Assembly: GCA_026396275.1 (NCBI GenBank)
Contig: JAPLXC010000004.1
Location: forward strand, 1,193-65,192
Direction of reading: 5' to 3'
DNA: 64,000 nucleotides
Source: Candidatus Moraniibacteriota bacterium
GTDB lineage: Bacteria > Patescibacteriota > Minisyncoccia > Moranbacterales > JAPLXC01
Shown here in pieces: positions 6,938 through 30,333 of this stretch. The position numbers and the translations under genes are program-made. The notes beneath the pieces were generated by a model. It was not told the origin of the DNA. It did not search any database and saw only the letters and a list, made by a program, of their open reading frames with translations. How positions within the stretch are numbered: position 1 is the first letter of the stretch; each line of letters begins with the position of its first letter.

Positions 6938-9889
6938 ATGGAAAAATACAACTCGCGGAAAATAGAGAAAAAGTGGCAGAAGAAATGGGAAGAAAGCGGA
7001 ATTTACAAGAATTACAAAAAAGACAAGAAATTCTACGCTCTTGATATGTTTCCTTATACCTCCGGCGAGGGTTTGCACGTGGGCCATCCGAGAGGATACA
7101 TCGCCACTGATGTCGTTTCCCGTTTCAAGATGCTTCAGGGAGCAAGCGTTCTTCATCCGATGGGATGGGACGCTTTTGGCTTGCCAACAGAAAATTACGC
7201 CATCGAGCATAAAATTCACCCGCGGATCGTGACCGAAAAAAATATTTCTGTTTTTAAAAAACAGCTTCAAATGTTTGGTTTTACCTATGATTGGGATCGG
7301 GAGATTAATACAACGGATCCGGGATATTACAAATGGACGCAGTGGATTTTTTTGAAAATGTTTGAAAAAGGACTGGCTTATGAGTCGAACGAGCCGATTA
7401 ACTGGTGCCCCTCCTGCAAGACAGGGCTGGCGCTGGAGGATTTGGAAAAAGGATTATGCGAACGTTGCGGAACGCAGGTAGTGCAGAAAAAAATGAGACA
7501 GTGGGTTTTAAGGATGACAAATTATGCTGATCGTCTGCTTTACGATCTGGACAGCGAAGATCTAGATTGGGAGGAGCAGATTTTAGAACAACAAAGAAAC
7601 TGGATCGGGAGAAGCGAGGGAACAGAGTTCAAGATGCCAGTTGTCATTGCGAGCGAAGCAAAGCAATCTCGTACAGAAGAATCAAATTCAGAGATTGCCG
7701 CGTCGCCTTCGGCTCCTCGCAATGACATCTATATTGAAGTTTATACCACCCGTCTGGATACGGCCTTTGGGATGACATATGCAGTAGTAGCACCGGAACA
7801 TCCAATCGTCGCTTCGCTTCTCAAAATCAAAAATCAAAAATCAAAAATCAAAAATATTGAAGAAATTAGAAATTATATAATCCGGTCACAGAATAAAACA
7901 GAGCTGGAAAGAATGGAGGCAAAGGAAAAAACAGGAATGGAAATTAAAGGAATAAAAGTTATAAATCCTTTCACTAATGAGGAAATTCCGTTATTTGTTG
8001 CCGATTATGTTTTAGGCCACTACGGCACCGGCGCAGTGATGGCTGTGCCAGCACACGATGAAAGGGACTGGGAATTTGCGAGGAAATATAATTTACCCAT
8101 AAAACAATCAATCGTTCCAAATTACAGAGAATATGAAACTACAATAAAGACCCTAAATGCACTTAGAGAAATCTATAGAGCAGCTGAAAAAAAAGACTTA
8201 AGATTTTGGCTACTTGGCGGACTAGCTTGCGCTTTTTATGCGGGAATAATTTATAGGGAACACAATGATTTAGATTTAATTACCGAAAATGAAAATGACC
8301 GTATTAAAATGTTTCAATTATTGGAAAATTTGGGATTTAAAAAAATAAAGGAGAAAAAAATATCAGAAAATCTCATCAACTTTGTTTATCAACGAGGAGA
8401 AATTGAAGTTGATATTGGACCCAATCAAGGCGAATTTGGTTTGGCTGGTGATTTTGAGGAAGATATTAAATATCTAGGAGAATACCAGTCAAGAGTATTA
8501 AGCAAACGATTTGTCAAAAGTTTTAAAGAATATCAGTTGAAGACTAGAGATGAAAAAAAAGACCAAATAGACGTGGAATATTTAAGTGGTAAAGTTTTGA
8601 TTGATGATGAAGTATTGGTTAATTCTGAAAAATATTCAGGACTAACTTCCCAAAAAGCCCGAGAGGAAATGGCAAAGTGGCTGGAGAAACAAAGAATCGG
8701 CAAGAAAAAAATAAATTACAAAATGCGTGACTGGGTGTTTTCCAGACAGCGTTACTGGGGAGAACCCATTCCCATAATTCACTGCGAGAAATGCGGTGCA
8801 GTAGGGGTGCCGGAGAAGGAATTGCCTGTTACTTTGCCGGATGTTGAAAGTTACGAGCCGACCGGGACGGGCGAATCGCCACTGGCGAATATCAAAGATT
8901 GGGTGAACACCACTTGTCCCAAATGCGGCGGACCGGGAAAAAGAGAAACCAATACTATGCCTCAATGGGCGGGCTCCTCCTGGTATTATCTTCGCTACAT
9001 TGATTCAAAAAATGAAAAGGAACTTGTTGGAAAAAAAGAAGAAAAAAAGTGGATGCCGGTGGATCTCTATGTGGGCGGGATAGAACACGCTACTCGTCAT
9101 CTTCTCTACGCACGATTCTGGCACAAGTTTTTATACGATATTGGTGTTGTTTCCACAAAAGAGCCGTTTAAAAAATTAGTTCACGTCGGGCTCATTGGCG
9201 GAGAGGACGGCAGAAAAATGTCCAAGCGCTGGGGCAATGTCGTCAGTCCTAACGACGTGATAGAACAATTCGGAGCGGACTCAATCAGATTGTATGAAAT
9301 GTTTATGGGGCCTTTCACCCAGGGTATTTCATGGAGTACGGCAGGGGTAAGTGGGATGAGGAGATTTTTGGAGAAAGTATGGAAATCGCAAAATCGAATT
9401 ATGAATTACGAATCAGGAATTAAGAATAACGTTGAAAATTTATTGCATAAGACAATCAAAAAAATAACAGAAGATATAGAAAATTTCCGATTTAATACCG
9501 CACTAAGCTCGATGATGATATATATTAATCAACTTGAGAAACAAAAGAAAATATCCATGATTCATTATTCACAATTCCTAATTCTATTGAGTCCCTTCGC
9601 CCCCCATATCGCCGAAGAGCTATGGGAGAAACTAGGACACAAAGAAAGCATATTCCGGCAGTCCTGGCCGAAGCATAATCCGCAATTGATAAAAGACGAG
9701 GAAATAGATCTGGTAATCCAAGTCAATGGAAAAGTCCGCGACACTGTTAAAGTATCAGCCGATATTTCCGAAGATGAAGCGAAAAAACTAGCCTTTGAAA
9801 ATCAAAAAGCAAAAACCTTTACAAAGGAAAAAGTAATTAAAAAGGTCATTTTTGTAAAAGGCAAGTTAATTAATATCGTAGTTTCTTAG
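6938..9889 (+). CDS. leuS: Leucyl-tRNA synthetase with an embedded ~165-aa nucleotidyltransferase-like domain and two short repeat-derived insertions
   Basis: HIGH motif (HVGHPRGY), KMSKR, and the zinc ribbon CPSCK...CERCG are present. Likely start is the second Met (MEKYNSRKIEKKW). An extra segment with W..GG...R.H.D.D motif lies between the CP1 domain and the body. Confidence 0.9.
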   Translation: MEKYNSRKIEKKWQKKWEESGIYKNYKKDKKFYALDMFPYTSGEGLHVGHPRGYIATDVVSRFKMLQGASVLHPMGWDAFGLPTENYAIEHKIHPRIVTEKNISVFKKQLQMFGFTYDWDREINTTDPGYYKWTQWIFLKMFEKGLAYESNEPINWCPSCKTGLALEDLEKGLCERCGTQVVQKKMRQWVLRMTNYADRLLYDLDSEDLDWEEQILEQQRNWIGRSEGTEFKMPVVIASEAKQSRTEESNSEIAASPSAPRNDIYIEVYTTRLDTAFGMTYAVVAPEHPIVASLLKIKNQKSKIKNIEEIRNYIIRSQNKTELERMEAKEKTGMEIKGIKVINPFTNEEIPLFVADYVLGHYGTGAVMAVPAHDERDWEFARKYNLPIKQSIVPNYREYETTIKTLNALREIYRAAEKKDLRFWLLGGLACAFYAGIIYREHNDLDLITENENDRIKMFQLLENLGFKKIKEKKISENLINFVYQRGEIEVDIGPNQGEFGLAGDFEEDIKYLGEYQSRVLSKRFVKSFKEYQLKTRDEKKDQIDVEYLSGKVLIDDEVLVNSEKYSGLTSQKAREEMAKWLEKQRIGKKKINYKMRDWVFSRQRYWGEPIPIIHCEKCGAVGVPEKELPVTLPDVESYEPTGTGESPLANIKDWVNTTCPKCGGPGKRETNTMPQWAGSSWYYLRYIDSKNEKELVGKKEEKKWMPVDLYVGGIEHATRHLLYARFWHKFLYDIGVVSTKEPFKKLVHVGLIGGEDGRKMSKRWGNVVSPNDVIEQFGADSIRLYEMFMGPFTQGISWSTAGVSGMRRFLEKVWKSQNRIMNYESGIKNNVENLLHKTIKKITEDIENFRFNTALSSMMIYINQLEKQKKISMIHYSQFLILLSPFAPHIAEELWEKLGHKESIFRQSWPKHNPQLIKDEEIDLVIQVNGKVRDTVKVSADISEDEAKKLAFENQKAKTFTKEKVIKKVIFVKGKLINIVVS
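7643..7726. mobile_element. MITE-like palindromic element family A (GTCATTGCGAGCGAAGC...CTCGCAATGAC), 84 nt, in-frame inside leuS
   Basis: Terminal inverted repeats gtcattgcgag / ctcgcaatgac. Encodes VIASEAKQS... in the leuS frame and SLRGAEGDAAIS on the opposite strand, the usual signature of this repeat family. Confidence 0.6.
7823..7855. repeat. (AAAATCA)x4 heptamer tandem repeat, in-frame in leuS
   Basis: Direct read. Encodes KIKNQKSKIKN. Same repeat occurs in rnhB and the GT4 gene at 48093. Confidence 0.7.
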
Positions 9890-16020: not shown

Positions 16021-16695
16021 ATGAAACGCGGAAAGAAGTATAAAACTGTCGCGGAAAAAATTGATAAGAATAAATCTTATCCTATTGATGAGGCGGTTAA
16101 GCTTGTCAGGGAAAAAAAAATCGCCAAATTCGATGAATCAGTCGAAATTCATATTAAGCTTTCCATTGATACCAAAAAGGGCGAAGAGCAAGTGCGGGGA
16201 ACTGTAGTTCTTCCTCACGGAACGGGAAAAAGCAAAAAGGTGGCGGTCATTACTTCAACCAAGGTAAGGGAAGCCAAAGATGCAAAAGCGGATATTGTCG
16301 GTGGCGAAGAAATGATAACCAAACTAAAAAGCGGAAAATTCAACTTTGATGTTTTAGTAGCCACTCCCGAAATGATGCCGCGCCTGGCTTCAATCGCCAA
16401 GATTCTGGGACCCAAGGGACTGATGCCCAGCCCCAAAACGGAAACCGTTACGGAAAAAGTGAAAGAAACAGTAGAAATGCTTAAAAAAGGAAAAGTCAAT
16501 TTCAAAAACGATGACACTGGAAACATCCATCAAATAATCGGCAAAGTTTCTTTTACTGAGGAGCAGCTCAAAGGAAATTTTGAAGCATTTCTGGAAGCAG
16601 TTAAAAAAGCAAAACCAGCTACAGTGAAAGGAAAATTTATTAAGTCAATTTCAGTTTGTTCCACAATGGGCCCGGGAATTAAAATTGGGATATAG
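16021..16695 (+). CDS. rplA: 50S ribosomal protein L1
   Basis: Typical L1 N-terminus and length, following rplK. Confidence 0.9.
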   Translation: MKRGKKYKTVAEKIDKNKSYPIDEAVKLVREKKIAKFDESVEIHIKLSIDTKKGEEQVRGTVVLPHGTGKSKKVAVITSTKVREAKDAKADIVGGEEMITKLKSGKFNFDVLVATPEMMPRLASIAKILGPKGLMPSPKTETVTEKVKETVEMLKKGKVNFKNDDTGNIHQIIGKVSFTEEQLKGNFEAFLEAVKKAKPATVKGKFIKSISVCSTMGPGIKIGI

Positions 16696-16717
16696 AATTA
16701 AGAATTATAGATATGCA

Positions 16718-16743
16718 AAAAGATGCTTGAAAGCATCTTTTTA
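16718..16743 (+). terminator. Rho-independent terminator after rplA
   Basis: agatgctt-ga-aagcatct stem followed by TTTT. Confidence 0.5.
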
Positions 16744-16814
16744 AATTTGTTGACATTTATGATTTAATATTTTAGGATGTTATGAAGCTCTTTAAAATAA
16801 AAGGGAGGTAAAAA

Positions 16815-17831
16815 ATGAATATAAAGGTAAGGAAGATAAGGGAAGATGCTAAAGTTCCAATTAGGGCATCTGATGGTGCAGTAGGATATGATGTTTTTGC
16901 TTCAAGGGTACTGGATAAATTTACCAAGGAAGTAATTCAGGATTTGCCGGTAGAAATACTTGGTGGCGCTAGTGTATTAATCGGTATTGGAGTAAAAATG
17001 GCTGTGCCCTGGCCGTATGAGTGCCAAGTTAGACCCAGGAGTGGTCTTGCGAGTAAATTTGACATCGAACTTTCTAATTCTCCAGGAACAATAGATCCCG
17101 ACTTCAGGGGCGAAGCAGGTGTTCTTTTGAGAAATAGAGGAAAAGAAACTTTTGTTGTGGAAAAGAATATGAGAATTGCTCAATTAATTTTCTCTAAAGT
17201 CGAAATCCCGATTTTAGAAGAAACGAAAGAGCTCCCTGCAACTAGGAGGGGAACTGGCGGTTTTGGATCAACAGGACTTCATGGAGATGGATTAGGGACT
17301 GATGAATATAATGAATACATAAAAGAAATGGATAGGTATTATATGAGAGTGGTTCTTGCAGTAGCGGATCGCTCCACATGTGTCAGGGGGGTAAAAAAAG
17401 TAAATGGTAAATATGAAAGAGATAAAAAGGGAAAATTGGTTGGCCAGAATCGCAGATTCGGTTGTGTGATTGTGAAGAATGATAATATCCTTGCTCAAGG
17501 TTTTAATGACCAATATTACGGTTCTCCAAAATGTGCTGACGCAGGATGTTTGAGGGAGGAGTTGAATATTCCCTCTGGTACGCAAATTGAAAAATGCAGA
17601 GCAATGCATGCCGAGTGGTGGGCATTCACTAATGCAGGTAAAATGGATAGCTCGCCGACACTTAAAGGTGCTACTGTCTATGTCAATGCGGAACCATGCG
17701 AAATATGCGCAAAGATGATTGTTGGTTTTGAGATTGATACAGTTGTTTTACTAAAAGGTATTTATCCAACTAATGGCATCAGGATTTTAAAAGAAGGAGG
17801 AGTGAATATAAGGTATATTGAAATTAATTAA
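16815..17831 (+). CDS. Fusion protein: N-terminal dUTPase-like domain plus C-terminal dCMP/cytidine deaminase zinc-binding domain
   Basis: N-terminal half has dUTPase motifs (GYDVFAS, GTIDPDFRGE, RRGTGGFGSTG). C-terminal half has the deaminase signature HAEWWA...PCEICAKMI. Confidence 0.7.
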   Translation: MNIKVRKIREDAKVPIRASDGAVGYDVFASRVLDKFTKEVIQDLPVEILGGASVLIGIGVKMAVPWPYECQVRPRSGLASKFDIELSNSPGTIDPDFRGEAGVLLRNRGKETFVVEKNMRIAQLIFSKVEIPILEETKELPATRRGTGGFGSTGLHGDGLGTDEYNEYIKEMDRYYMRVVLAVADRSTCVRGVKKVNGKYERDKKGKLVGQNRRFGCVIVKNDNILAQGFNDQYYGSPKCADAGCLREELNIPSGTQIEKCRAMHAEWWAFTNAGKMDSSPTLKGATVYVNAEPCEICAKMIVGFEIDTVVLLKGIYPTNGIRILKEGGVNIRYIEIN

Positions 17832-17840
17832 GACCTAGAA

Positions 17841-17875
17841 AGGCTCTTAGTTTGAATAAACTAAGAGCTTTTTCC
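17841..17875 (+). terminator. Rho-independent terminator
   Basis: gctcttag / ctaagagc stem followed by TTTTT. Confidence 0.5.
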
Positions 17876-17891
17876 TTTATTAAGCCGTTTT

Positions 17892-17920
17892 TTGACAAGT
17901 TTGGCTAAAGGCGGTACAAT
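17892..17920 (+). promoter_or_regulatory. Candidate sigma70 promoter TTGACA-17-TACAAT
   Basis: Read directly, 25 nt upstream of the dCMP deaminase start. Confidence 0.45.
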
Positions 17921-17944
17921 GAAATAACTGATTACTAACTTCCT

Positions 17945-18469
17945 ATGGCTAAAAAAGCTTTAAAAAAGAAAAATAAAAAGAGCGAGGAAAAGTATATTCG
18001 TCCGTCTTGGGATGAGTATTTTTTAGATCTAGTAGAAGCTGTTGGAAAAAGAGCTACCTGTGATAGAGGGAGAACAAGCTGTATAATTGTTCGCGAAAAA
18101 AGAATTCTTTCCACCGGTTATGTCGGTTCACCAATCGGAGCCAAGCACTGCGACGATGCGGGGCATGAGATACACACGGTTATCCAAGAGGATGGCACTC
18201 AATCTCGGCATTGCATCAGAACCAGCCACGCGGAGCAGAATGCTATTGCCAATGCTGCCAGATTCGGTATGCCTCTGGAAGGCGGAACACTTTATGCCCA
18301 TATGGCTCCCTGCTACACTTGCGCCAAAATGATTATAAACTCCGGGATAAAAAGAGTGGTCTGCCGGGTTGATTATCATGGCGCCAAACGCGCTAAAGAA
18401 ATTTTCAAGGAATGCGGGATTGAATTTGAACAGATTGAAGATAAAATGCAAACTTATAAAGATATGTAA
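17945..18469 (+). CDS. dCMP deaminase (ComEB-type)
   Basis: HAEQNAI...PCYTCAKMIINSGIKRVV. Confidence 0.8.
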   Translation: MAKKALKKKNKKSEEKYIRPSWDEYFLDLVEAVGKRATCDRGRTSCIIVREKRILSTGYVGSPIGAKHCDDAGHEIHTVIQEDGTQSRHCIRTSHAEQNAIANAARFGMPLEGGTLYAHMAPCYTCAKMIINSGIKRVVCRVDYHGAKRAKEIFKECGIEFEQIEDKMQTYKDM

Positions 18470-18531
18470 TTCAAACGTACTACTTTTTCTGGTGTATGCT
18501 AAAAAAGCAGCACGCTTACAAAAAGTCAAAA

Positions 18532-19083
18532 ATGAGAAAAATAATCGCCATACTTGGATTACCCGGAGCTGGTAAAACCGAAGTTATAAATTATCTTATA
18601 AAAAAATACAACTGGCCGAAAGTTTATTTTGGCGATGTTACTTTTGATGAAGTTAAAAGGCGCGGATTGGAAATAAATGAGAAAAATGAAAGAACGGTGC
18701 GAGAAGATTTGCGCGCAAAATATGGAAGGTTGCATTATGCGTCGCAGGTAATAAAAAAGATTGAAGCGTTGCCGTCCGACACAAATGTCCTTGTGGAGAG
18801 TTTATACGACTGGAGGGAATATCTTTTTTTCAAAGAAAAATTTGGAAAGGAATTTATGACAATTGCGACTTATGCTTCGCCTGAAACTAGGTATGAGAGG
18901 CTGTCAAAAAGGCCAGAAAGGCCATTGACTCCGGAAGTAGCCCAAAGCCGGGATTATGCTCAAATTGAGAATCTTTTTCAAGCCGGACCAATTGCGATGG
19001 CGAATTATACCATAAATAATGAAGGTACATTTGAAGAACTTTATAGTCAGGTTGATGAGATAATAGAAAATATAAATAAATGA
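18532..19083 (+). CDS. P-loop deoxynucleoside monophosphate kinase-like protein (resembles phage T4 gp1-type dNMP kinase)
   Basis: Walker [12 protein letters not shown]. The C-terminal [16 protein letters not shown] resembles, from my memory of the T4 gp1 sequence, its C-terminal segment. The ORF could start earlier, at 18496. Confidence 0.5.
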
Positions 19084-19874
19084 AACAATATCTAGATTTA
19101 TTGCAAAAAATAATGGAAGAAGGGGTTAACAAAGAAAATAGAACCGGTATTGATACAAGAAGTATTTTTGGTTATCAATTGCGTTTTAATCTGGAAGAAG
19201 GATTTCCGCTTCTTACGACCAAAAAAATGCATCTGAAGTCCATTATTCACGAACTAATTTGGTTTTTGAAAGGCGAAACGAATATAAAATATCTTCACGA
19301 CAATGGAGTAACGATCTGGGACGAGTGGGCGAATGAAAAAGGGGAACTCGGTCCGGTTTATGGCTATCAATGGCGGCACTGGAAAAAATATGAGGGAGGG
19401 GAAGTTGACCAGATCAGCGAGGCGATTGAAAAAATAAAAAACAAGCCAAATGACCGAAGAATAATAGTGAGCGCCTGGAATGTTGGGGAAATTGAAAAAA
19501 TGGCGCTCCCTCCCTGCCATTTATTATTTCATTTTTATGTAGCCGATGGAAAATTATCCTGTCTAATGTATCAGCGAAGCTGTGATACTTTTCTGGGAGT
19601 GCCGTTCAATATTGCATCTTATGCACTTCTTACTATGATGTTTGCGCAGGTTTGCAGTTTGAAACCGGGAGAATTCGTACATATTTTGGGTGATACCCAT
19701 ATCTATCATAATCATTTTGATCAAGTGAAACTGCAATTAAGCCGGGAACCAAAAAAACTGCCGACTATGAAAATCAATCCGAAAGTGAAAAATATTTTTG
19801 ATTTTAAATACGAAGATTTTACACTGGAAGGATATGATCCCCATCCGGCGATTAAAGCGCCAATCGCGGTTTAG
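19080..19874 (+). CDS. thyA: Thymidylate synthase
   Basis: [51 protein letters not shown]. Confidence 0.9.
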
Positions 19875-19878
19875 AAAT

Positions 19879-19934
19879 GTCACTCCGGGCTTGATCCGGA
19901 ATCTAATTAGATTCTGAAACAAGTTCAGAATGAC
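19879..19934. mobile_element. MITE-like palindromic element family B (GTCA[CT]TCCGG...CCGGAATCTA...GAATGAC), thyA-folA spacer
   Basis: gtcactccgggcttgatccggaatctaattagattctgaaacaagttcagaatgac. Nested hairpins. Confidence 0.55.
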
Positions 19935-19947
19935 ATATTAAAATGTA

Positions 19948-20436
19948 ATGAAATCGACTATCTCTATCATCGCAGCTATTGCCGAAAAAAATCGGGCTAT
20001 CGGCAAAGATAATAAATTGCTTTGGCATATTCCGGAAGACCTAAGACGTTTTAAAAATCTCACCACTGGACACGCAATAATAATGGGGCAAAAAACTTTT
20101 GAGTCGCTTGGAAAACCTCTGCCAAACCGCACCAATATTGTTATTTCGAACAATCCCGATTTTAATCCCCAAAATGTTATTGTGACAAGATCAATTGAAG
20201 AATCTCTGAAAAAAGCTAGGGAAATAGAGAAAGAAGAAATATTTATTTGTGGCGGAGGATTAATTTACCGACAATTTCTACTACTGGCTGACAAATTGTA
20301 TTTAACTATTATTGAAGGAAACTTTGAAGCTGATACTTTTTTTCCAGATTATTCGGAGTTTAGTAAAATTGTTAAAGAAGAAAAAAGTTCAGATGAGAAA
20401 TATAATTATAAATTTGTGGAGTTAGTCAGAGAATAA
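19948..20436 (+). CDS. folA: Dihydrofolate reductase
   Basis: ISIIAAIAEKNRAIGKDNKLLWHIPEDLRRFKNLTTGHAIIMGQKTFESLG. Confidence 0.85.
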   Translation: MKSTISIIAAIAEKNRAIGKDNKLLWHIPEDLRRFKNLTTGHAIIMGQKTFESLGKPLPNRTNIVISNNPDFNPQNVIVTRSIEESLKKAREIEKEEIFICGGGLIYRQFLLLADKLYLTIIEGNFEADTFFPDYSEFSKIVKEEKSSDEKYNYKFVELVRE

Positions 20437-20440
20437 AAAT

Positions 20441-21055
20441 ATGAAAAAAAACAAGAAACGGAGATTGTTCATTGTCTTTGAAGGACTTGATGGTTCCGGC
20501 CAGACAACGCAAATAAACTTATTAGAAAAATATCTAAAATTAAAAGGAAAAAAAGTGCATATGACAGCTGAACCATCAAGCAGTTTAATTGGCGGATTAA
20601 TTCGGGCAGTTTTGACGCATCATTGGAAATTGAGCAACACCGGATTACAGCTTCTCTATTGCGCTGACAGGGCGCATCATCTTGAAACAGAAGTGTACCC
20701 GGCGCTTGCGAAAGGAAATATCGTGTTATCAAGCCGCTACTTTTTTTCAACCATCGCCTTTGGCTCTTTGAATAATGACACTAGATGGCTGGAAAAAATC
20801 AATGAAAAATTTCCAAAACCTGATGTCACTTTTTTCATCAATGTTTCTCCAAAAGAGTGCATTAAAAGATTAGATCTTTCAAGATTCAGAAAAGAAATTT
20901 TTGAAAAGGAGGAAAAAATGGGAAAGGTCTTAAGAACCTATATTAAAATAGGTAAAAACAAAAAATATAAAAATTTCTTTACTATCAACGGGGAACAGCC
21001 CGTCGAAAAAATTTCACAGGATGTAATTAAAATTATTGACAAATTTATTAGATAA
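20441..21055 (+). CDS. tmk: Thymidylate kinase
   Basis: P-loop FEGLDGSGQTTQ and the DR..H LID region. Confidence 0.85.
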   Translation: MKKNKKRRLFIVFEGLDGSGQTTQINLLEKYLKLKGKKVHMTAEPSSSLIGGLIRAVLTHHWKLSNTGLQLLYCADRAHHLETEVYPALAKGNIVLSSRYFFSTIAFGSLNNDTRWLEKINEKFPKPDVTFFINVSPKECIKRLDLSRFRKEIFEKEEKMGKVLRTYIKIGKNKKYKNFFTINGEQPVEKISQDVIKIIDKFIR

Positions 21056-21129
21056 TATTACACTAAAAAGCCGATAATTTTGTAAGGAAGAAATAAAAGC
21101 TTTTTGAAAATTTAAGGAGGTGGGAGAAG

Positions 21130-21852
21130 ATGATTTTTGAAGATAGTAATACTGTTATGGTTAATGGCCGGATTGATGATGGTTACAGAGAAGCAATGCT
21201 TCTTTGCGTGAGAAATGGCTGGGATTTTGTAGTAAAAGGCGGGAGTTATGTCGGGCAAATTAGAAAACAGTTGGAAAATGTCCAGATAATAATAGGGGAT
21301 CCGAGTAAAAGACCGCTGGCTCCAGTTTTGCCGCCTGGAATTCCCGCCAGTACCAGTGATGAAAAAATAGATAAATATTTTGCCGAATATCTGATGAGCA
21401 CCGAGGTCAAAGAAAATGAGGAATATACCTATGGCACCTACATTGTTCCACAAGTTCCGAAAATAATCGAAATATTGAATAAGGCAAAAGGAAACACTAA
21501 TCAGGCCTGCATAAGCATCGGGGATATTAATTCAATTAATCTTCCTGATCCACCCTGTTTAAAGCTTATAAGCTTTAAGGTTGTAAAAGGAAAATTGATT
21601 ATGACAGTTTTTTTTAGATCTTGGGACTTATATGCAGGTCTGCCAGAAAATCTGGGAGGGCTGCAACTACTCAAAGAATTTGTTTTTGCTCATCTCGATT
21701 TTGAGTGCTCTGACGGGAAAATGATTGCTTATAGCGACGGGCTTCACCTCTATGAACAGTACTTTGATTTAGTAAATGTTCTGAATGTGGATAAAGTTGT
21801 TATTAGCAAAATAGCGGCAAAAGATAAGGAGGAATTTTCAAAAACTCTTTAG
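21130..21852 (+). CDS. Divergent thymidylate synthase-superfamily paralog (candidate pyrimidine nucleotide hydroxymethylase/methylase)
   Basis: Catalytic-core motifs retained: PPCLKLISFKV (PPC nucleophile), GKLIMTVFFRSWDLYAGLPEN (compare QRSxDxxLGxPFN), DGLHLY. The N-terminal ~95 aa are unrelated to ThyA. Confidence 0.5.
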   Translation: MIFEDSNTVMVNGRIDDGYREAMLLCVRNGWDFVVKGGSYVGQIRKQLENVQIIIGDPSKRPLAPVLPPGIPASTSDEKIDKYFAEYLMSTEVKENEEYTYGTYIVPQVPKIIEILNKAKGNTNQACISIGDINSINLPDPPCLKLISFKVVKGKLIMTVFFRSWDLYAGLPENLGGLQLLKEFVFAHLDFECSDGKMIAYSDGLHLYEQYFDLVNVLNVDKVVISKIAAKDKEEFSKTL

Positions 21853-21916
21853 TTGCAAAAAGGTCGACATCCGTCGGCCTTTATTTTTTTGACCAGTATG
21901 ATAAGATAAAATTGAT

Positions 21917-22474
21917 TTGAAGACAAGCCATTTTATGAAAAGGAGAAATATCGAAGTTGAAATTAGGAGTTTTATTTCCAAAGAGGAATATGATGAATTA
22001 CTGAAATTTTTTGAAGAGAGAGGAAAGCTAATTAGCAAAGACAAGCAGGAAACTTATTATTTTAAAGGACTGTGGGATCTGCGGATCCAAAAGAATAATT
22101 TTTATTCAAAGATCTGGTTCAAGAAAGGAAAAATTCATGACGACTTCCGGGAAGAAATTGAAATAAAATTTGATAGCGGTGATTTTAATGAATTAAAAAA
22201 ATTGTTTGATGCTCTTGGTTATAAGGTCGATATAAAATGGCTGCGAACTAGACATACTTTCAGATGGCAGGGAATTACAGTAACAGTTGATTTTACCAAA
22301 GGATACGGCTATATTATTGAGCTGGAAAAAATGACAAGGAGAATAGAAAAGGAAAAAGTAGTCAAGCTACTAAAAGGAAAGTTAAAAATGCTTAGCATTC
22401 GAGAAACGCCGCGGGAGGTGTTTGAGAAAAAATTTCAGTTTTATAAGAAGAATTGGGAAAAACTAGCCAAATGA
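21917..22474 (+). CDS. CYTH-domain protein (triphosphate tunnel metalloenzyme family)
   Basis: N-terminal EVEIR acidic motif and beta-rich size fit CYTH. Weak. Confidence 0.45.
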   Translation: MKTSHFMKRRNIEVEIRSFISKEEYDELLKFFEERGKLISKDKQETYYFKGLWDLRIQKNNFYSKIWFKKGKIHDDFREEIEIKFDSGDFNELKKLFDALGYKVDIKWLRTRHTFRWQGITVTVDFTKGYGYIIELEKMTRRIEKEKVVKLLKGKLKMLSIRETPREVFEKKFQFYKKNWEKLAK

Positions 22475-22896
22475 AAATTTTTGTCAAAAAACTTGAGCCC
22501 GAGGCAAAGATTCCTTCCTACGCCCATCCCGGAGACGCCGGAATGGATTTGTATTCTCTGGAAAACGTGAATATAAAACCAGGAGAAAGAGTTTCTTGCC
22601 GAACCGGAATTGCGATACAAATCCCGGGTGGCTATGCCGGGCTCATTTGGGACAAAAGCGGAATTGCTTGGAATGGTGGAATTAAAACAGTAGCAGGAGT
22701 AATTGACAGTGGTTATCGGGGTGAAGTCGGAATTGTTCTTGTTAATTTAGGTCATAAAGATTATAAAATAAACAAAGGCGACAAGATTGCCCAAATGCTT
22801 ATACAGAAAGTTGAGGATCCGGAAATTATTGAAGCAGAGAACCTAGAAGAAAGTGCCAGGGGCAACGGAAGATTTGGAAGCACAGGAGTAAGCTGA
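22471..22896 (+). CDS. dut: dUTP diphosphatase
   Basis: AGVIDSGYRGEVGIVLVN and RGNGRFGSTG. Its ATGA start overlaps the preceding stop. Confidence 0.9.
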   Translation: MKIFVKKLEPEAKIPSYAHPGDAGMDLYSLENVNIKPGERVSCRTGIAIQIPGGYAGLIWDKSGIAWNGGIKTVAGVIDSGYRGEVGIVLVNLGHKDYKINKGDKIAQMLIQKVEDPEIIEAENLEESARGNGRFGSTGVS

Positions 22897-22984
22897 AATA
22901 ATATGAAATACATATCAGTAATAGGAATGGAAGTCCACCCTGTAAAGTCACGAGGCATGACCACGGGGCAAGTATTGAACTTAT

Positions 22985-24490
22985 ATGAGTAAATACAAAG
23001 CCACAATTGGCATGGAGGTTCATGTCGAGCTCAAAACAAAGAGCAAGATGTTTTGTGATTCTAAAAACGCGATGGGAGAGGAAAAAAAGCCCAACGTTCA
23101 TATCTGCCCGGTTTGCACGGGCCAGCCCGGCACTCTTCCGGTTCCCAATCGCCAGGCAATAGAATTTGTGCAGCTGGCCGGGTTAGCATTGAATTGCGAA
23201 ATTGCAAAAGAATCCAAATTTGACCGCAAAAATTATTTTTATCCCGATCTTCCCAAGGGCTACCAAATTTCACAGTACGATCAGCCGTTATGTAGAAGTG
23301 GAAAATTAGAAATGGGGAGCGGGAAGATTATCGGAATTACGAGGATTCACTTAGAAGAAGATACGGGAAAATTAATACACCCCGTAAAATCGCTTCGCGA
23401 TAACGGGGCAAGCCCCGCCGGGGCAGGTTATACTTTAGTAGATTTTAACCGGGCTGGAGTGCCACTTATGGAACTAGTGACGGAACCGGATATTGAATCC
23501 GGAGCCGAGGCGCGATTATTTTGTCAAAAACTCCAGCAAATTTGCCGCTATCTTGAAATTTCCGAAGCCGATATGGAAAAAGGGCACATGCGCTGCGAAG
23601 CTAACATCTCGCTATACAAAGAAGGCGAAAATAAGCTAAGTGGAGTTAAAGTGGAAGTAAAAAATATCAACTCTTTCAAGTTTGTTGAGAAAGCTATTGA
23701 TTATGAAATTAAAAGACAAACTGAAATTTTAGAGAAAGGTGAAAAAGTAATTCAGGAAACTAGAGGCTATGACAGCAACAAAAATATTACTGTATCCCAG
23801 CGAACCAAAGAATCAGCTCATGATTACCGCTACTTTCCCGAACCAGATATTCCGCCACTGAAGTTTACTGAAGATTATATTAATAACTTGCGCGCTAAAC
23901 TCCCGGAACTTCCCGATGCCAAAAAGAAAAGATTAATCGCGGAATATAATTTATCTTCGGAAAATGTTGAGGTAATAGTCAGCGATAAGGGTTTGGCGGA
24001 TTACTTTGAACAGGTAGTTTCAGAAATTAAAGAAAAAAGGGAAAGCAGTGAAGTATGTGCGGATGAAAATAAATGCGTTAAACTTTCGGCCAACTATATC
24101 GTCAGCGAACTGCAAAAGCATCTGATTCGCGACGGGGTGACGGTTAGGGACATAAAAATCACTCCGGAAAACTACGCGGAACTTGTAGGTTTTATCGCGG
24201 ATGGGAAGATAAGTTCCAGTGCTGCCCAGACAGTCCTTGAAGAAATGTACAAAACCGGCGGAGATCCATCACAGATAATCAAGGCCAAAAACTTGGCCCA
24301 AGTCAGCGATGAAAGTGAGTTAGACAAAACTATCCAACAGGTGCTTGACAAAAATACTCAATCAATGGAGGATTATAAAAAGGGGAAAGCCAATGCGTTG
24401 CAGTTTTTGATAGGCCAAGTAATGGCAAAAACCGGCGGCCGGGCTAATCCCAAAATGGTGGCAAAAATACTAAAAATTAAATTGAACTAA
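22985..24490 (+). CDS. gatB: Asp/Glu-tRNA(Asn/Gln) amidotransferase subunit B
   Basis: IGMEVHVELKT...CPVCTGQPGTLP and a C-terminal GatB/YqeY tail. Confidence 0.9.
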   Translation: MSKYKATIGMEVHVELKTKSKMFCDSKNAMGEEKKPNVHICPVCTGQPGTLPVPNRQAIEFVQLAGLALNCEIAKESKFDRKNYFYPDLPKGYQISQYDQPLCRSGKLEMGSGKIIGITRIHLEEDTGKLIHPVKSLRDNGASPAGAGYTLVDFNRAGVPLMELVTEPDIESGAEARLFCQKLQQICRYLEISEADMEKGHMRCEANISLYKEGENKLSGVKVEVKNINSFKFVEKAIDYEIKRQTEILEKGEKVIQETRGYDSNKNITVSQRTKESAHDYRYFPEPDIPPLKFTEDYINNLRAKLPELPDAKKKRLIAEYNLSSENVEVIVSDKGLADYFEQVVSEIKEKRESSEVCADENKCVKLSANYIVSELQKHLIRDGVTVRDIKITPENYAELVGFIADGKISSSAAQTVLEEMYKTGGDPSQIIKAKNLAQVSDESELDKTIQQVLDKNTQSMEDYKKGKANALQFLIGQVMAKTGGRANPKMVAKILKIKLN

Positions 24491-26066: not shown

Positions 26067-27440
26067 TTATGATAAAATTCCCTCTAAATTCCAAATGTTA
26101 GCTTTAATAATTTTAATTTTGACAAATTTGCCAACGAGATTTTTTTGAGCGCTTTTAAATTTTACATTCTTCATTGTTCTGGTTCTGCCGAAATAAAATC
26201 CATCTTTTTGGCTGTCTATTATGACTTTAAATATTTTTCCCAAATAATTTTTATTATTCTCAAATGCCGTAATTTTCAGAATTTCATTCAAAAATTTTTC
26301 CCGCCTTTCTTTTTCTTTTTTGGAAACATTATCTTTCATCTTCCAAGCGGCGGTTCCCGGGCGGGGAGAAAATTGGCCAAAGTAAACCATATCATATTTG
26401 ACTTTTCTCATAATTTCAGCGGATTTGGCAAATTGTTTTCTGGTTTCCCCGGGAAAACCAACAATTATGTCAGAGGTTATCGCATATAAAACTCCCGGCT
26501 TGTATTTAGTAAACGCGGATTTAATTTTTTTAATCAGTCCCGGATAATGTCTGGCCGTATAGTTTCTGTTCATTCTTCTTAGTATTTCGTCGTCTCCGGC
26601 CTGGATGGGAAGATGCACATATTCACAAACTTTTTCGCATTTAGCAATTGTCTTAATCAATTCATCTGACATATCTTTCGGGTGGCTGGTTAGAAAATGA
26701 ATCCAGAAATTGCCGGAGATAGCATTTATTTTTTTAAGAAGCTTGGAAAAGTTTATTTTTCTATAATTATAAGAATTCGCGTTTTGTCCAAGTAAAATAA
26801 TTTCTTTATATCCCTTTTTCACTAAAACTCTGACTTCCTTAATAATTTCCTTTGCCGGACGGGAAATTTCCCTCCCTCGGGCATAGGGGACAACGCAATA
26901 AGAGCAAAAGTTGTTGCAGCCGGTCATGATCGGCACGAAGGCAGAATATTTTGTGTTGTATTTTGGCTCAATGTTTAGGTAATTGTCATTGCGAGGGAGC
27001 CCGTCAAAGGCGGATAAACTCCGCGACCGTGGTAATCCTGTAGATTTATCATCATTTAAATTATCTAGAGATTGCTTCCACCGCCAAGGTGAGGTCGCAA
27101 TGACAGACAAAATTTTTTCCGGGAATTCTTTTATTCCACAAAACAAATCAACTTTATCTTTTAACCTTCTCTGCACATCTTTTCTATTTGCCAAGCACCC
27201 GGTTAAAACAATAATCTTTTTTGTTCTATGTTTTGTGTTCCATGTTGTAAGATTATGTATTTGTCCATAAACCCGATCCTCTGCGCTTTGGCGCACGCCG
27301 CAGGTGTTGAAAATCACCAGATTGGCCTCATTGATATTTTTCCCTGGCTTAAATTTATGCAATTCCAAAAATGCCGCAATTCGTTCAGAATCGCTATAAT
27401 TCATCTGACAACCAAAGGTTTTAATAAAATATTTTTTCAT
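26067..27440 (-). CDS. miaB: tRNA-i6A37 methylthiotransferase (MiaB family, radical SAM)
   Basis: N-terminal MTTase domain (FGCQMN), radical SAM CNNFCSYC, TRAM C-terminus. Confidence 0.9.
   Translation of the reverse strand: MKKYFIKTFGCQMNYSDSERIAAFLELHKFKPGKNINEANLVIFNTCGVRQSAEDRVYGQIHNLTTWNTKHRTKKIIVLTGCLANRKDVQRRLKDKVDLFCGIKEFPEKILSVIATSPWRWKQSLDNLNDDKSTGLPRSRSLSAFDGLPRNDNYLNIEPKYNTKYSAFVPIMTGCNNFCSYCVVPYARGREISRPAKEIIKEVRVLVKKGYKEIILLGQNANSYNYRKINFSKLLKKINAISGNFWIHFLTSHPKDMSDELIKTIAKCEKVCEYVHLPIQAGDDEILRRMNRNYTARHYPGLIKKIKSAFTKYKPGVLYAITSDIIVGFPGETRKQFAKSAEIMRKVKYDMVYFGQFSPRPGTAAWKMKDNVSKKEKERREKFLNEILKITAFENNKNYLGKIFKVIIDSQKDGFYFGRTRTMKNVKFKSAQKNLVGKFVKIKIIKANIWNLEGILS
26985..27104. mobile_element. 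MITE-like palindromic element (family A-related, GTCATTGCGAG...GTCGCAATGAC), 120 nt in-frame in miaB
   Basis: Terminal inverted repeats. Encodes a 40-aa insert (SPWRWKQSLDNLNDDKSTGLPRSRSLSAFDGLPRNDNY) ahead of the radical-SAM cysteine motif. Confidence 0.55.
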
Positions 27441-27451
27441 TCAATTTATAT

Positions 27452-27516
27452 GTCATTCCGGACTCCAATCCGGAATCTAGTTAATTTTACTGGATTCCCG
27501 CCTGCGCGAGAATGAC
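27452..27516. mobile_element. MITE family B copy, 12 nt upstream of the miaB start codon
   Basis: gtcattccggactccaatccggaatctag...ctggattcccgcctgcgcgagaatgac. Confidence 0.55.
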
Positions 27517-27630
27517 AGTTAAAATTGCTTGACAGCTAAAGGTTTTGATGAAATACTTCATGGAAGTTTCTTTAACAAACAAGTATTCATTAGGATACTT
27601 AATAATAAAACTAAAATCAAGGGAGGATAA

Positions 27631-27897
27631 ATGAAGCCGGGAGTTTTAGAACGTAAGATAAGAAAGATAGTAGAATATTCAAGAGACAAACAGCCGATGT
27701 TAAGAATCATCAAAAATAATGGTGAATCAAAATTCGGCGAATATATTCAATTAGGAATCATTGAAGGCGGCGGAAGAGCTCTCTTTACCAGAGATTCGGG
27801 GATCAGCGTTTATCCCTTGCGTGAGATTTCTGGCGTAGAATATATTTCAAAAAGTATAGCATGTTATGCATTAAACCGATCGCTGATTTTTAATTAA
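27631..27897 (+). CDS. Hypothetical small protein
   Basis: Strong SD (caagggagga). No motif. Confidence 0.4.
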   Translation: MKPGVLERKIRKIVEYSRDKQPMLRIIKNNGESKFGEYIQLGIIEGGGRALFTRDSGISVYPLREISGVEYISKSIACYALNRSLIFN

Positions 27898-27928
27898 AAG
27901 TTTCAGTGAAAATCAAAGGAGGAGGAAA

Positions 27929-28210
27929 ATGGAGAAAAAACAAATGCAAAAAGAAATAAAAGAAATTATTAAAAGAAATGGTGCTTTTCCTGCCCTAGTT
28001 GTTTTGACTAAGAAAGGTCTTTTGATTCTTGGTGAGCTTCAAGCATTATACTCAGACAGATTGGCGCTAAGAAAGTTTAATACGCCTCCAGAACAAGCAG
28101 AAGGTTGGACATTTATAACGCATTCAGCTGTTGAAAAAATAAAACATGTGCCGCAGATTGAATTGATTAATATGATCAACAATCTTGAATCTTGCTGTCT
28201 TGTTTGGTAA
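27929..28210 (+). CDS. Hypothetical small protein
   Basis: Strong SD (aaaggaggagga). No motif. Confidence 0.4.
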   Translation: MEKKQMQKEIKEIIKRNGAFPALVVLTKKGLLILGELQALYSDRLALRKFNTPPEQAEGWTFITHSAVEKIKHVPQIELINMINNLESCCLVW

Positions 28211-28377
28211 AATATGCGCCATTTAAATGTACGCAGAAAGTAAAAATAAGCCGACGGAAAATCCGCTCAGCTTTCTTTTTTGTCCAAATTTCTGATAAGT
28301 AACTATTCGCGCGAATAGTTACCAGTACTTTATTCGATGTTACACTTAACGTCGGCCGACAGTATGTGTAGTAAGAG

Positions 28378-30333
28378 TTATTTCTTTTCTGTGATTTCTT
28401 TGGTAATTTTTTCAATAAATTTCTCCAATTTCATAGTTTCCTGATTTCTATTATCTCTTTCTCTAACGTTCACACTATCACTTCCCATTTCTTTTTCTCC
28501 AACCACTAGCATATATGGGATTTTTTGCTTTTCGGCATCGCTGATGCGTTTGCCTAGTGTCTCGGATTGGTTGCTAATTTGAGAGCGAATATTATTAGCT
28601 AATAGAAGCGAATTAATTTTTTCAGCGTATCTAGAAAACTTTTCTGAAATTGGGATAATTACCGCCTGAACAGGAGAGAGCCAAACGGGAAAAGCGCCGG
28701 CAAAGTGTTCCGTAATAATTCCAATGAATCTTTCAAAAGCGCCAAAGATGGCAGCGTGAATCATCACCGGCGTTTTTTTCTTTCCGTCTTTATCTACATA
28801 TTCTATCTCAAACCTTTGGGGAAGTTGAAAGTCAAGCTGAATGGTAGCTAGTTGCCAAGAGCGGCCCAAGGCGTCTTTAATGTCAATATCAATTTTCGGC
28901 CCGTAAAAGACACCCTCTTTATCTTTTATTTCGTATTTAACTCTTTCTTTCTTAAGCGCATCTTCTAAATCTTTTTCAGCTTCATTCCAAGTCCTAATAT
29001 CTCCCATAAAATCATCTGGCCGGGTGGAAAGATAAAATTTCGGCTCAATTCCAAAACAACCATAGTATTCTCGCGTCATCTTGAGCAATATCCTGATTTC
29101 TTCTTTAACCTGATTTTTGGAGAGAAAAATGTGCGAGTCATCCTGGGTAATTTGGCGAACACGCAAAAGGCCGTTAAGCTCACCCGATTTTTCGTTGCGC
29201 ATCACATGGCCGATCTCCGTATATCTTATTGGAAGTTCTTTGTACGACCTTTGTTTTTCCTGGTAAATTTTTATATTAAAAGGACAGTCCATTGGCTTGA
29301 TAACATACTTATTACTGTCGACTTCGAAGTGAAACATGCTTTCTTTATAATGCTCCCAGTGGCCGGAGATTTCCCAAAGTTTTCTTTTAGCCAGGATCGG
29401 CGTCTGTATTTCTTCATAACCGTATTTCTTACGTATGTTTTTTCCTAATTGTTCTAGTTCGTTCCAGATAATCATTCCCTTGGGATGCCAGAAAGCCGAA
29501 CCGGGAGATTCAGGGTGAAAGGAATATAAATCCAAATCTTTCCCCAGTTTTTTGTGGTCTCTTTTTTCAGCTTCTTCCATATTTTTCAAATAATCATTCA
29601 GCTCTTTTTTGGTTTGAAAAACCACGCCATAAATTCTTTGCAATTGCTTGTTTTTTTCATCGCCTTTCCAATAAGCGCCGGAGATTTTGGTAAGTTTAAT
29701 CGCGTCGGGATTTATTTCGCCAGTAGAATCCAAATGTGGTCCTGTACAAAGATCGACGAAGCCCCCAGTTTTATAAATTGTTACCATCACCGATTTTTTT
29801 TCTTTTGACAGTATACTCCGATCGGAGCATACTGTTATATTAGCAGAAATGTCATTTAGAAGTTCGACTTTATATGGCTGGCCGGCTTTTTTGAAATGTT
29901 TAATGGCATTCTCGGCTGTGATTTCTTGCCTCTCAAATGGATAATTAGCTTTAATGATTTTTTTCATTTTTTCCTCCAGGATTTCCAGGTCTTCGGGAAT
30001 GAGAGTCCGCGGCAAATCAAAATCGTAATAAAAACCATTTTCAATAGCCGGGCCTATCCCAAATTTGGCTTCGGGAAACATTTCCAAAACCGCCGCGGCA
30101 AGAACATGCGAAGCCGAGTGCCTTAAAATTTCTAGATCGCTATTTTTTTTGCTTAACATATTTTCATTATAGCTAAAAAATAAAAGACCTAAAAACATAG
30201 GTCCTGGGCCCCGATGTAACTTCGGGGGGTTCCACCCAAGTTGTCCGATGTAACCATCAAACCACTCTTTAAGCTGTTGCGCCAGCTTCTGCGGAAACTC
30301 GACGGTTGGTAGCCGTGTCATTGTTTCATTCAA
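28378..30333 (-). CDS. thrS: Threonyl-tRNA synthetase
   Basis: TGS domain, editing-domain HxxxH (HSASHVLAAAV), class II core, C-terminal anticodon-binding domain. Confidence 0.9.
   Translation of the reverse strand: MNETMTRLPTVEFPQKLAQQLKEWFDGYIGQLGWNPPKLHRGPGPMFLGLLFFSYNENMLSKKNSDLEILRHSASHVLAAAVLEMFPEAKFGIGPAIENGFYYDFDLPRTLIPEDLEILEEKMKKIIKANYPFERQEITAENAIKHFKKAGQPYKVELLNDISANITVCSDRSILSKEKKSVMVTIYKTGGFVDLCTGPHLDSTGEINPDAIKLTKISGAYWKGDEKNKQLQRIYGVVFQTKKELNDYLKNMEEAEKRDHKKLGKDLDLYSFHPESPGSAFWHPKGMIIWNELEQLGKNIRKKYGYEEIQTPILAKRKLWEISGHWEHYKESMFHFEVDSNKYVIKPMDCPFNIKIYQEKQRSYKELPIRYTEIGHVMRNEKSGELNGLLRVRQITQDDSHIFLSKNQVKEEIRILLKMTREYYGCFGIEPKFYLSTRPDDFMGDIRTWNEAEKDLEDALKKERVKYEIKDKEGVFYGPKIDIDIKDALGRSWQLATIQLDFQLPQRFEIEYVDKDGKKKTPVMIHAAIFGAFERFIGIITEHFAGAFPVWLSPVQAVIIPISEKFSRYAEKINSLLLANNIRSQISNQSETLGKRISDAEKQKIPYMLVVGEKEMGSDSVNVRERDNRNQETMKLEKFIEKITKEITEKK

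Follow-up and report, generated by a model that had tools for sequence, protein, structure and literature searches.

A short thymidylate synthase-fold protein beside canonical ThyA in a pyrimidine deoxynucleotide island of Candidatus Moranbacteria

In a 64,000-nucleotide stretch of a Candidatus Moranbacteria chromosome (hereafter the window), nine consecutive open reading frames (ORFs) on the plus strand (16815..22896), all intact, form a pyrimidine deoxynucleotide block whose products are numbered p1 to p9 here. Alongside a canonical thymidylate synthase, ThyA (p4), a dihydrofolate reductase (DHFR), FolA (p5), and a thymidylate kinase, Tmk (p6), the block encodes a short protein with the thymidylate synthase (TS) fold (p7). 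We propose, with roughly even confidence, that p7 may be a second, non-canonical thymidylate synthase that is independent of FolA, and we tentatively favor this on sequence grounds over p7 being a dUMP hydroxymethylase. p7 is predicted to act on dUMP at C5, with either dTMP or 5-hydroxymethyl-dUMP (5-hmdUMP) as its product. The block as a whole is a lineage-typical, mosaic dUMP-to-dTTP island, in the largest version seen, and not a phage kit in a cell, because the corresponding site in related Patescibacteria is also occupied by genes of pyrimidine deoxynucleotide metabolism. The evidence consists of gene content, fold, conserved residues and synteny, from which the substrates and products named below are predicted.

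Affiliation and distribution of p7

p7 has the TS α/β fold and matches PF00303 weakly (31.2 bits against 24.3), over residues 107 to 216 only, in its C-terminal half. It falls under the curated ThyA equivalog cutoffs (NF002497, 36.7 against 327 bits; TIGR03284, 30.9 against 108 bits). Its nearest curated family is the methanogen-type synthase TIGR03283 (76.9 bits against a cutoff of 174.55), with residues 14 to 213 aligned to positions 7 to 199 of the 201-position model. Because ten representatives of the p7 family score 62 to 98 bits against TIGR03283, all under 174.55, we place the family by its profile scores as a sister group of TIGR03283 and not as a member. Both are short forms of approximately 200 to 240 residues without the ThyA inserts; in contrast to the methanogen-type synthase, the p7 family occurs in bacteria and phages not known to use methanopterin.

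Homologs sharing sequence words with p7 number 465 and are named "thymidylate synthase" by their sources. A profile search of 1.84 billion representatives returned 175 clusters at E values up to 1e-30; the best 150 representatives were all of the p7 family, with no true TIGR03283 member among them. Motifs found family-wide are R45, NExYxYG, GNTNQ, DPPCL, FRSWD, PEN (G.N across the family) and HxY. Hosts include Patescibacteria, some Firmicutes and many uncultivated phages: scanning IMG/VR with p7 gave 55 loci, 24 of them at 50 to 64% identity. No full-length p7-type gene was found in GenBank phages or in PLSDB plasmids, PHROG matches were weak, and literature searches on the family, whether in Patescibacteria or under the name "ThyA-like", returned nothing. 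Some family members are 500 to 975 residues long and match in two or three separated stretches, some broken right after the catalytic cysteine (P0266, P0272, P0279, P0291, P0301, P0323, P0341 and P0349 are among the long members), a pattern consistent with inteins. At one locus (L009, 8720-11872), the NrdD adjoining the p7 homolog also appears to bear an intein.

Evidence for p7 as a possible second thymidylate synthase

Residues of p7 were mapped onto ThyA using phmmer, hhalign and MAFFT, and conservation was counted over 121 close homologs. The equivalents of ThyA Cys146, Arg166, Ser167, Asp169, Asn177, His207, Tyr209 and Tyr94 (C143, R163, S164, D166, N174, H206, Y208 and Y101 in p7) are kept in 120 to 121 of the 121. 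An original prediction, made from the sequence of this block alone, had named an inactive or RNA methyltransferase-like ThyA paralog among the outcomes that would undo it; p7 is neither. The Arg126/Arg127 phosphate clamp is replaced by an invariant Asn124-Gln125 (within GNTNQA), and further changes are His147 to Leu, Gln165 to Phe, Cys168 to Trp, Phe176 to Glu, and Leu172 to Ala, Thr or Ser. Where ThyA has its folate residues, the p7 pocket is rich in aromatics (Y83, F84, Y99, Y101, F162 and W165), and the C-terminus is a helix unrelated to that of ThyA.

Gene neighborhoods were viewed over 10 kb on either side of each homolog. At approximately 12 of the 16 cellular loci, the p7 homolog lies near tmk, a dCMP/dCTP deaminase gene or a dUTPase gene and is the sole gene of the TS fold there, and the only recurrent neighbors of the family are tmk (nine loci) and a deaminase gene (eight loci). 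In Firmicutes, the homolog lies directly 5' of nrdD; in viral contigs, it sits amid replication and nucleotide genes, once adjoining a thymidine kinase gene. Among the compared loci, DHFR occurs only beside canonical ThyA (the window and L153). The window also encodes FolD (methylene-tetrahydrofolate dehydrogenase/cyclohydrolase; 5967-6806), and therefore folate one-carbon metabolism exists. No dTTP- or dTMP-removing enzyme, 5-hydroxymethyldeoxyuridine (5-hmdU) DNA kinase (5-HMUDK), aGPT-Pplase or glycosyltransferase was found in the ORFs checked, with approximately half of the large ORFs in the window unscanned; the likeness of the block, as a unit, to a phage toolkit for DNA hypermodification that had been suggested is thus not borne out among those ORFs.

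These observations (conserved catalytic and pyrimidine/ribose-contacting residues, a methanogen-type synthase as nearest curated family, the sole TS-fold gene in most cellular loci with tmk and deaminase as recurrent neighbors, DHFR only with canonical ThyA, FolD in the window, no base-decorating enzyme among the checked ORFs, and adjacency to nrdD in Firmicutes and to replication and nucleotide genes in phages) lead us to favor a synthase. In the scheme that we propose, the island would make dTTP from salvaged pyrimidine deoxynucleotides. Deoxyuridylate would have two sources, dCMP (deaminated by p2 and by the deaminase half of p1) and dUTP (hydrolyzed by p9 and by the p1 dUTPase half), with p3 probably handling a pyrimidine (d)NMP. 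ThyA (p4) would methylate dUMP, FolA (p5) would re-reduce the dihydrofolate, and Tmk (p6) would make dTDP. p7 would be the ancestral resident TS-fold enzyme of the island, and ThyA-FolA here, like ThyX in sister genomes, would be a cassette inserted between the kinase gene and tmk. Cys143 of p7 would attack C6 of dUMP and the one-carbon unit would come from methylene-tetrahydrofolate, as the gene for serine hydroxymethyltransferase (SHMT) at the head of the operon in relatives suggests; p7 would bind both phosphate and cofactor otherwise than ThyA does and would be independent of FolA.

Several observations weigh against a synthase. First, the position of ThyA Leu143 is Asp (D140) in 117 of the 121 close homologs, and this Asp, three residues before the catalytic cysteine (Asp(-3)), is shared by all six hydroxymethylase-type enzymes that we aligned. 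Second, p7 lacks Trp80/Trp83, Phe176, Leu172 and the C-terminal lid, which in ThyA hold folate for hydride transfer. Third, p7 and a complete second synthase system (ThyA-FolA or ThyX) share one operon in four genomes (three of this lineage and one more distant), which argues that the two are non-redundant. Finally, dTMP has been shown as the product of no member of the p7 family or its methanogen sister family, and the archaeal short ThyA enzymes have never been identified or purified biochemically (PMC9931769, PMC9012536).

A dUMP hydroxymethylase as an alternative

The strongest competing explanation, which we regard as possible though less probable than a synthase, is that the p7 family consists of dUMP hydroxymethylases whose 5-hmdUMP would be phosphorylated by the adjacent Tmk. 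Cys143 would add to C6 and the methylene would come from methylene-tetrahydrofolate; a water molecule activated or admitted by Asp140 would next attack the exocyclic methylene, with tetrahydrofolate released unchanged. The resulting 5-hydroxymethyluracil (5hmU) would enter DNA, taking the place of some of the T where ThyA or ThyX is present, or the nucleotide would serve another product.

One argument for this comes from the active site. In TS-fold enzymes, the choice between uracil and cytosine lies with residue 177, residue 143 tracks a methyl or hydroxymethyl product, and D169N marks 5-hydroxylases (PMC13326640). Applied to sequences that we fetched, the residue-143 rule separated six of six hydroxymethylase-type enzymes (Asp) from two of two ThyAs (E. 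coli ThyA and p4; Leu). Asp(-3) is combined with Asn177 in SPO1 gp29, Det7 gp108, Pseudomonas phage Max and PhiW-14 gp230, and with Asp177 in T4 gp42 and an enzyme from a Streptococcus salivarius plasmid. By record annotation, SPO1 gp29 and T4 gp42 are hydroxymethylases and PhiW-14 gp230 is similar to that of SPO1; the Det7, Max and S. salivarius proteins are classed as hydroxymethylase-type by phage group or residue pattern. With D140 and N174, p7 therefore carries the dUMP-hydroxymethylase residue pair, identical to the four phage proteins and opposite to both ThyAs, and the family keeps this signature down to 26% identity. The loss of the folate-holding residues and of the lid for hydride transfer points the same way; SPO1 gp29-type enzymes share with p7 the catalytic cysteine, Asp(-3), Asn177 and the loss of the Trp80/Trp83 segment. 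Set against this, p7 reads Pro-Asp-Pro-Pro-Cys-Leu where those enzymes have Lys-Asp-x-x-Cys-Asn, both of its clamp arginines are gone, and its sequence is no closer to phage hydroxymethylases than to ThyA (SPO1 gp29, 35% over 96 residues, no better than ThyA). The suggestion that the ThyA paralog is hydroxymethylase-like is strengthened in part by the Asp(-3)/Asn177 pair and by a phage homolog in a modification-like cluster (below); sequence affiliation does not support it.

Gene context bears on this alternative in both directions. The dCMP deaminase, dUTPase and nucleotide kinase beside p7 mirror the pre-replicative 5-hmdUTP pathway of phages (PMC8989533). Two relatives encode SHMT and p7 in an operon without DHFR (L156 and L012), which for a hydroxymethylase would be a closed cycle, and the sharing of operons with ThyA-FolA or ThyX also counts in favor of this alternative. 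A nucleotide pyrophosphatase gene (dUTPase, MazG, NUDIX or CYTH) always adjoins or lies near the p7 homolog. In a phage contig that encodes a clamp loader (L154, 8001-13628; the same in L155), a homolog 59% identical to p7 (P0085) stands first, followed by Methyltransf_21, a P-loop kinase/ATPase, Amidoligase_2, an HNH endonuclease and a glycosyltransferase. This row looks like a DNA-base hypermodification cluster of the kind that surrounds dUMP hydroxymethylases (PMC8989533). In three viral-like contigs (L028, L047 and L049), a T4 gp1-type dNMP kinase gene lies directly 3' of the homolog (PHROG 139, E = 8e-36).

In contrast, the only matches of the L154 kinase and amidoligase are hypothetical proteins of jumbo phages, and neither has detectable similarity to 5-hmdU DNA kinases or hypermodification enzymes, and across 129 viral neighbors there was no recurrent 5-HMUDK, aGPT-Pplase or glycosyltransferase partner of the p7 family. 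Unlike its counterparts in SPO1 gp29-type systems, p7 is chromosomal, lineage-wide and beside ThyA-FolA, and neither a dTTPase nor a dTMPase turned up in the ORFs of the window that were checked. As the sole TS-fold gene in most cellular loci, a hydroxymethylase would also imply that many Patescibacteria make hmdUTP. We know of no report of hmdUTP synthesis by Patescibacteria, and of no bacterial chromosome in which 5hmU is made this way; both count against a hydroxymethylase.

Some other loci deserve mention. A true T4 gp1-type dNMP kinase also occurs near the p7 homolog in L118, and is of a different type from p3 of the window. Some phages with p7-family genes (L118, L130 and neighbors) encode QueC/QueD/QueE-like 7-deazaguanine proteins, a dATP/dGTP diphosphohydrolase domain and GmrSD_C domains, and so carry further DNA-modification functions. 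The S. salivarius plasmid pSaLI10 (L162, record 27274-41885) was considered as a source of a p7-family member and rejected: its TS-like gene is of the cytosine-type hydroxymethylase kind (KDIPC, Asp177). The genes after it encode a Tmk-like AAA kinase, perhaps another TS-like protein, PqqD, a phosphotransferase and a fusion of CYTH and NUDIX domains; the cluster probably makes a nucleoside natural product and has no relation to the p7 family.

An unlikely alternative: another cofactor or substrate

It is unlikely, in our estimate, that p7 uses a different cofactor or substrate, such as a flavin in the former folate site (for flavin-assisted methylation or for C5 hydroxylation of a uracil nucleotide) or a nucleotide in a different phosphate state. 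The exchange of the Arg-Arg clamp for an invariant Asn-Gln, the aromatic-rich pocket and the missing DHFR linkage would fit such an enzyme, and the closest fold to p7 is of the flavin-dependent 5-hydroxy-dCMP synthase type (9iqc). That likeness may only mean that both are short forms without ThyA inserts. The ThyA-fold flavin-dependent dCMP 5-hydroxylases (HY126 AfhB and RB69 gp48; 9iqc/9iqu) and the CMP hydroxymethylase MilA (5jnh) are 15 to 16% identical to p7 and have Asp177, for cytosine, with Asn169 in the hydroxylases, whereas p7 has the Asn177 and Asp169 of uracil-specific enzymes. The 5-hydroxy-dCMP synthase changes (D169N, N177D and L143E; PMC13326640) are thus all absent from p7 (D166, N174 and D140). 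There is no linked flavin reductase, and SHMT, encoded first in related operons, suggests an enzyme that uses methylene-tetrahydrofolate.

Gene inventory and transcription layout

The nine-gene inventory first read from the sequence was upheld by the ORF list and by Pfam and NCBIfam scans of the products, as were the domain assignments in it. Features of the locus are given below; hairpin, promoter and ribosome-binding site calls are consensus matches only.

16717..16742, plus strand: terminator-like hairpin 3' of rplA
16750-16778, plus strand: promoter-like site 5' of p1
Between the hairpin at 16717..16742 and p1, plus strand: strong ribosome-binding site, AAGGGAGGT
16815..17831, plus strand: p1, dUTPase-dCMP deaminase fusion, 338 residues (Pfam, NCBIfam)
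17838..17873, plus strand: terminator-like hairpin 3' of p1
17892-17920, plus strand: promoter-like site 5' of p2, 11/12 matches
17945..18469, plus strand: p2, stand-alone dCMP deaminase, ComEB-like, 174 residues (Pfam)
18532..19083, plus strand: p3, UPF0200/AdkA-like kinase, 183 residues from ATG 18532 (longest ORF from 18496)
19080..19874, plus strand: p4, canonical ThyA, 264 residues (PF00303, NF002497)
19948..20436, plus strand: p5, dihydrofolate reductase FolA, 162 residues (PF00186)
20441..21055, plus strand: p6, thymidylate kinase Tmk, 204 residues (PF02223, TIGR00041)
21130..21852, plus strand: p7, short TS-fold enzyme (weak PF00303)
21859..21882, plus strand: strong terminator-like hairpin directly 3' of p7, 10 bp stem with 5 GC pairs and a T-run
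21917..22474, plus strand: p8, CYTH-domain protein, alternative ATG 21938 (PF01928)
22453..22896, plus strand: p9, stand-alone dUTPase, likely ATG 22471 (PF00692, TIGR00576)

Because hairpins follow rplA, p1 and p7 and promoter-like sites precede p1 and p2, the layout suggests three putative transcription units (p1, p2 to p7, and p8 to p9) rather than a single operon. The stop of p8 and the likely start of p9 overlap as ATGA (22471-22474), which suggests that the CYTH protein and the dUTPase may be translationally coupled. An Rfam scan of the block found no riboswitch or other cis-element.

The block lies between rplK-rplA and gatB, with tRNAs, secE, nusG, rplK and rplA upstream and gatB, miaA, miaB, thrS and dnaE downstream, in agreement with the cellular housekeeping context described originally; LeuRS, GlmS, UppP and FolD are encoded elsewhere in the window. 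Three further observations concern the rest of the window. A tRNA-guanine transglycosylase is encoded upstream of the block (2228-3355). The leucyl-tRNA synthetase (6902-9889; 995 residues) has a weak aminoglycoside-2''-adenylyltransferase match at residues 421 to 484, in or next to the editing domain. At 56511-62781, a TrwB/VirD4-like coupling protein is encoded after a 963-residue ORF that matches nothing in Pfam; the GC content there is 0.45 to 0.46 against a window mean of 0.41, and the segment may be mobile or related to secretion.

Predicted supply and use of dUMP by the other products

p1 combines a dUTPase domain (residues 12 to 154, 81 bits; 131.6 bits against TIGR00576, above its cutoff of 102.55) with a dCMP_cyt_deam_1 domain (residues 210 to 313, 66.8 bits), both of which are predicted to yield dUMP. 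p2 scores 78 bits in Pfam and 113 bits against TIGR02571, under the cutoff of 219, and is 89 to 92% identical to its counterparts in L012 and L153. p9 matches PF00692 (120.2 bits) and TIGR00576 (154.1 bits, above 102.55). By eye, both dUTPases retain motif 3 (GxIDxxFRGE/GVIDSGYRGE) and motif 5 (RGxGGFGSTG), and both deaminases retain HAE and PCxxC. Identities between paralogs (p1 N-terminus and p9, 31%; p1 C-terminus and p2, 32%; p4 and p7, 32% over 117 residues) rule out recent duplication: at 31 to 32%, these pairs are old. The idea of the fusion and duplications as peculiar to this locus finds no support: in Patescibacteria, full-length homologs of the fusion form at least 120 clusters, at 57 to 79% identity. 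Like the bifunctional dCTP deaminase-dUTPase (DCD-DUT), p1 would funnel cytosine deoxynucleotides to dUMP in one polypeptide; DCD-DUT is a single dUTPase-fold domain acting on dCTP, whereas in p1 a dUTPase of the trimeric type is genuinely fused to a zinc dCMP deaminase.

p3 is a P-loop kinase by Pfam (AAA_17/AAA_18). Its best solved relative is the UPF0200/AdkA-like SSO1041 (PDB 3lw7 and 3h0k; E = 1.6e-9), which it matches over its full length in sequence and structure; p3 is thus a UPF0200/AdkA-like kinase with the NMP-kinase fold. It had been taken for a T4 gp1-like dNMP kinase, an assignment that we withdraw: p3 has no profile match to the gp1 family (Pfam DNMK, PF21448), which is not its closest structural neighbor either. 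From sequence and its place beside the deaminase, p3 is probably a pyrimidine (d)NMP kinase partnering that enzyme; a literature search for UPF0200 turned up no functional paper. Against anti-phage dCTP deaminase models (NF041025; PADLOC PDLC02373), p3 aligns with the kinase half and p2 with the deaminase half, both scoring far under threshold. In contrast to that defense protein, p3 and p2 are separate genes in reversed order in a housekeeping operon. A role of the block in defense was considered and rejected: PADLOC gave no match for p7, p8 or p9 and just weak domain-level dCTP deaminase-model matches for p1 to p3.

p4 is collinear with E. coli ThyA (PF00303, 430.6 bits; NF002497, 474.6 bits, with the cutoff at 327) and retains R21, E58, W80/W83, Y94, R126/R127, L143, C146, R166, D169, N177, H207, Y209 and the C-terminus. 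p5 scores 185.9 bits against PF00186 (Pfam gathering threshold, 25) and 131.1 bits against its best NCBIfam DHFR equivalog (NF008037), under 168; p6 matches PF02223 (149.3 bits) and TIGR00041 (152.6 bits, above 83.25). Bacillus subtilis has thyA plus thyB-dfrA, and Mycobacterium tuberculosis thyA plus thyX, both precedents in favor of a second synthase. We regard p4, p5, p6, p9 and p2 as genuine members of a classical dTMP cycle like that of the B. subtilis thyB-dfrA operon; ThyA-FolA adjacency is shared, and two TS-fold genes per genome have precedent. Unlike in classical operons, all steps here lie in one slot, together with the dut-dcd fusion, a UPF0200-type kinase and a CYTH protein, and the second TS-fold gene belongs to a separate short family rather than being a ThyA ortholog.

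p8 matches PF01928 (34.8 bits, above 23.2), PDB 1yem (E = 2.2e-8) and, under the cutoff of 57.95, the class IV adenylate cyclase model TIGR00318 (42.4 bits). Its N-terminal motif is EVEIR instead of the CYTH ExExK (Arg for Lys), and by its domain it is probably a (tri)phosphate hydrolase. No p8 homolog occurs in any related locus compared, so that the CYTH gene is found only in the window; a dUTPase gene stands 3' of the p7 homolog in L012, L153 and L156, and MazG or NUDIX takes its place in other loci.

The island across Patescibacteria

In contigs with close p7 or p1 homologs, the slot from nusG-rplK(-rplA) to gatB-miaA holds between one and nine pyrimidine deoxynucleotide genes:

L158-L160: dut-dcd fusion only
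L161: dcd, kinase, fusion, tmk, NUDIX, p7-like
L013/L014: dCTP deaminase, tmk, p7-like
L156: SHMT, dcd, kinase, tmk, p7-like, dut
L012 and the P0005 contig: like L156, with ThyX between kinase and tmk
L153 (p7 93% identical): ThyA-DHFR at the ThyX position, as in the window

Synteny is thus conserved at the level of the slot, between rplK/rplA and gatB, with variable content, and this distribution agrees with the earlier suggestion that a salvage-dependent organism has here an elaborate supply of dTTP. ThyA-FolA and ThyX alternate at one position (window region compared, 16021-22985). Identities between the window and L153 differ widely from gene to gene (p7, 93%; dcd, 92%; ThyA, 65%; tmk, 31%; kinase, 30%), a mosaic better explained by cassette exchange within a native island than by a single import. 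The ThyX inserts are 429 to 450 residues long, approximately twice the usual ThyX length (L012, 7852-9204; P0005 contig, 3602-4891). The SHMT gene that comes first in the island of relatives is absent from the 64 kb window.

We consider it very improbable that the block is a cassette recently acquired from a phage or mobile element and not native housekeeping sequence. In favor of such an origin are the presence of the p7 family at 50 to 64% identity in many IMG/VR viral contigs, the mosaic identities to L153, a GIY-YIG homing-endonuclease gene in the P0005 version of the island and the apparent inteins of some family members. Against it, synteny of the slot and of its core genes extends to distant Patescibacteria, where the ribosomal and gatB flanks are the same, the GC content of the block genes (0.33 to 0.43) brackets the window mean of 0.41, and no integrase, repeat or phage structural gene adjoins the block.

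Implications

The p7 family is labeled "thymidylate synthase" everywhere, yet it fails the ThyA equivalog cutoffs and lacks the residues for phosphate binding and hydride transfer. Asp(-3) is the one residue that separates the hydroxymethylase-type enzymes from the two ThyAs among the eight aligned, and p7 has Asp. A farther-reaching and, in our judgment, rather doubtful version of the hydroxymethylase hypothesis is that the family is a dUMP hydroxymethylase and that many ultra-small bacteria, this Moranbacterium included (with dTMP also made through its ThyA), put 5hmU or a derivative in their chromosomal DNA. If true, this would be a first for bacteria, a cellular pathway of pre-replicative pyrimidine replacement, and 5hmU in cellular genomes and in many uncultivated phages would affect restriction, sequencing chemistry and phage-host biology. 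In a milder version, p7 would represent a third mechanistic kind of thymidylate synthase, with a ThyA fold, no folate oxidation and no need for DHFR. If p7 is a synthase, as we favor, it would be a new mechanistic variant and would provide a handle on the long-unresolved short ThyA of archaea. Patescibacteria make up a large share of bacterial diversity and are salvage-dependent, and their route to thymidylate bears directly on that dependence.

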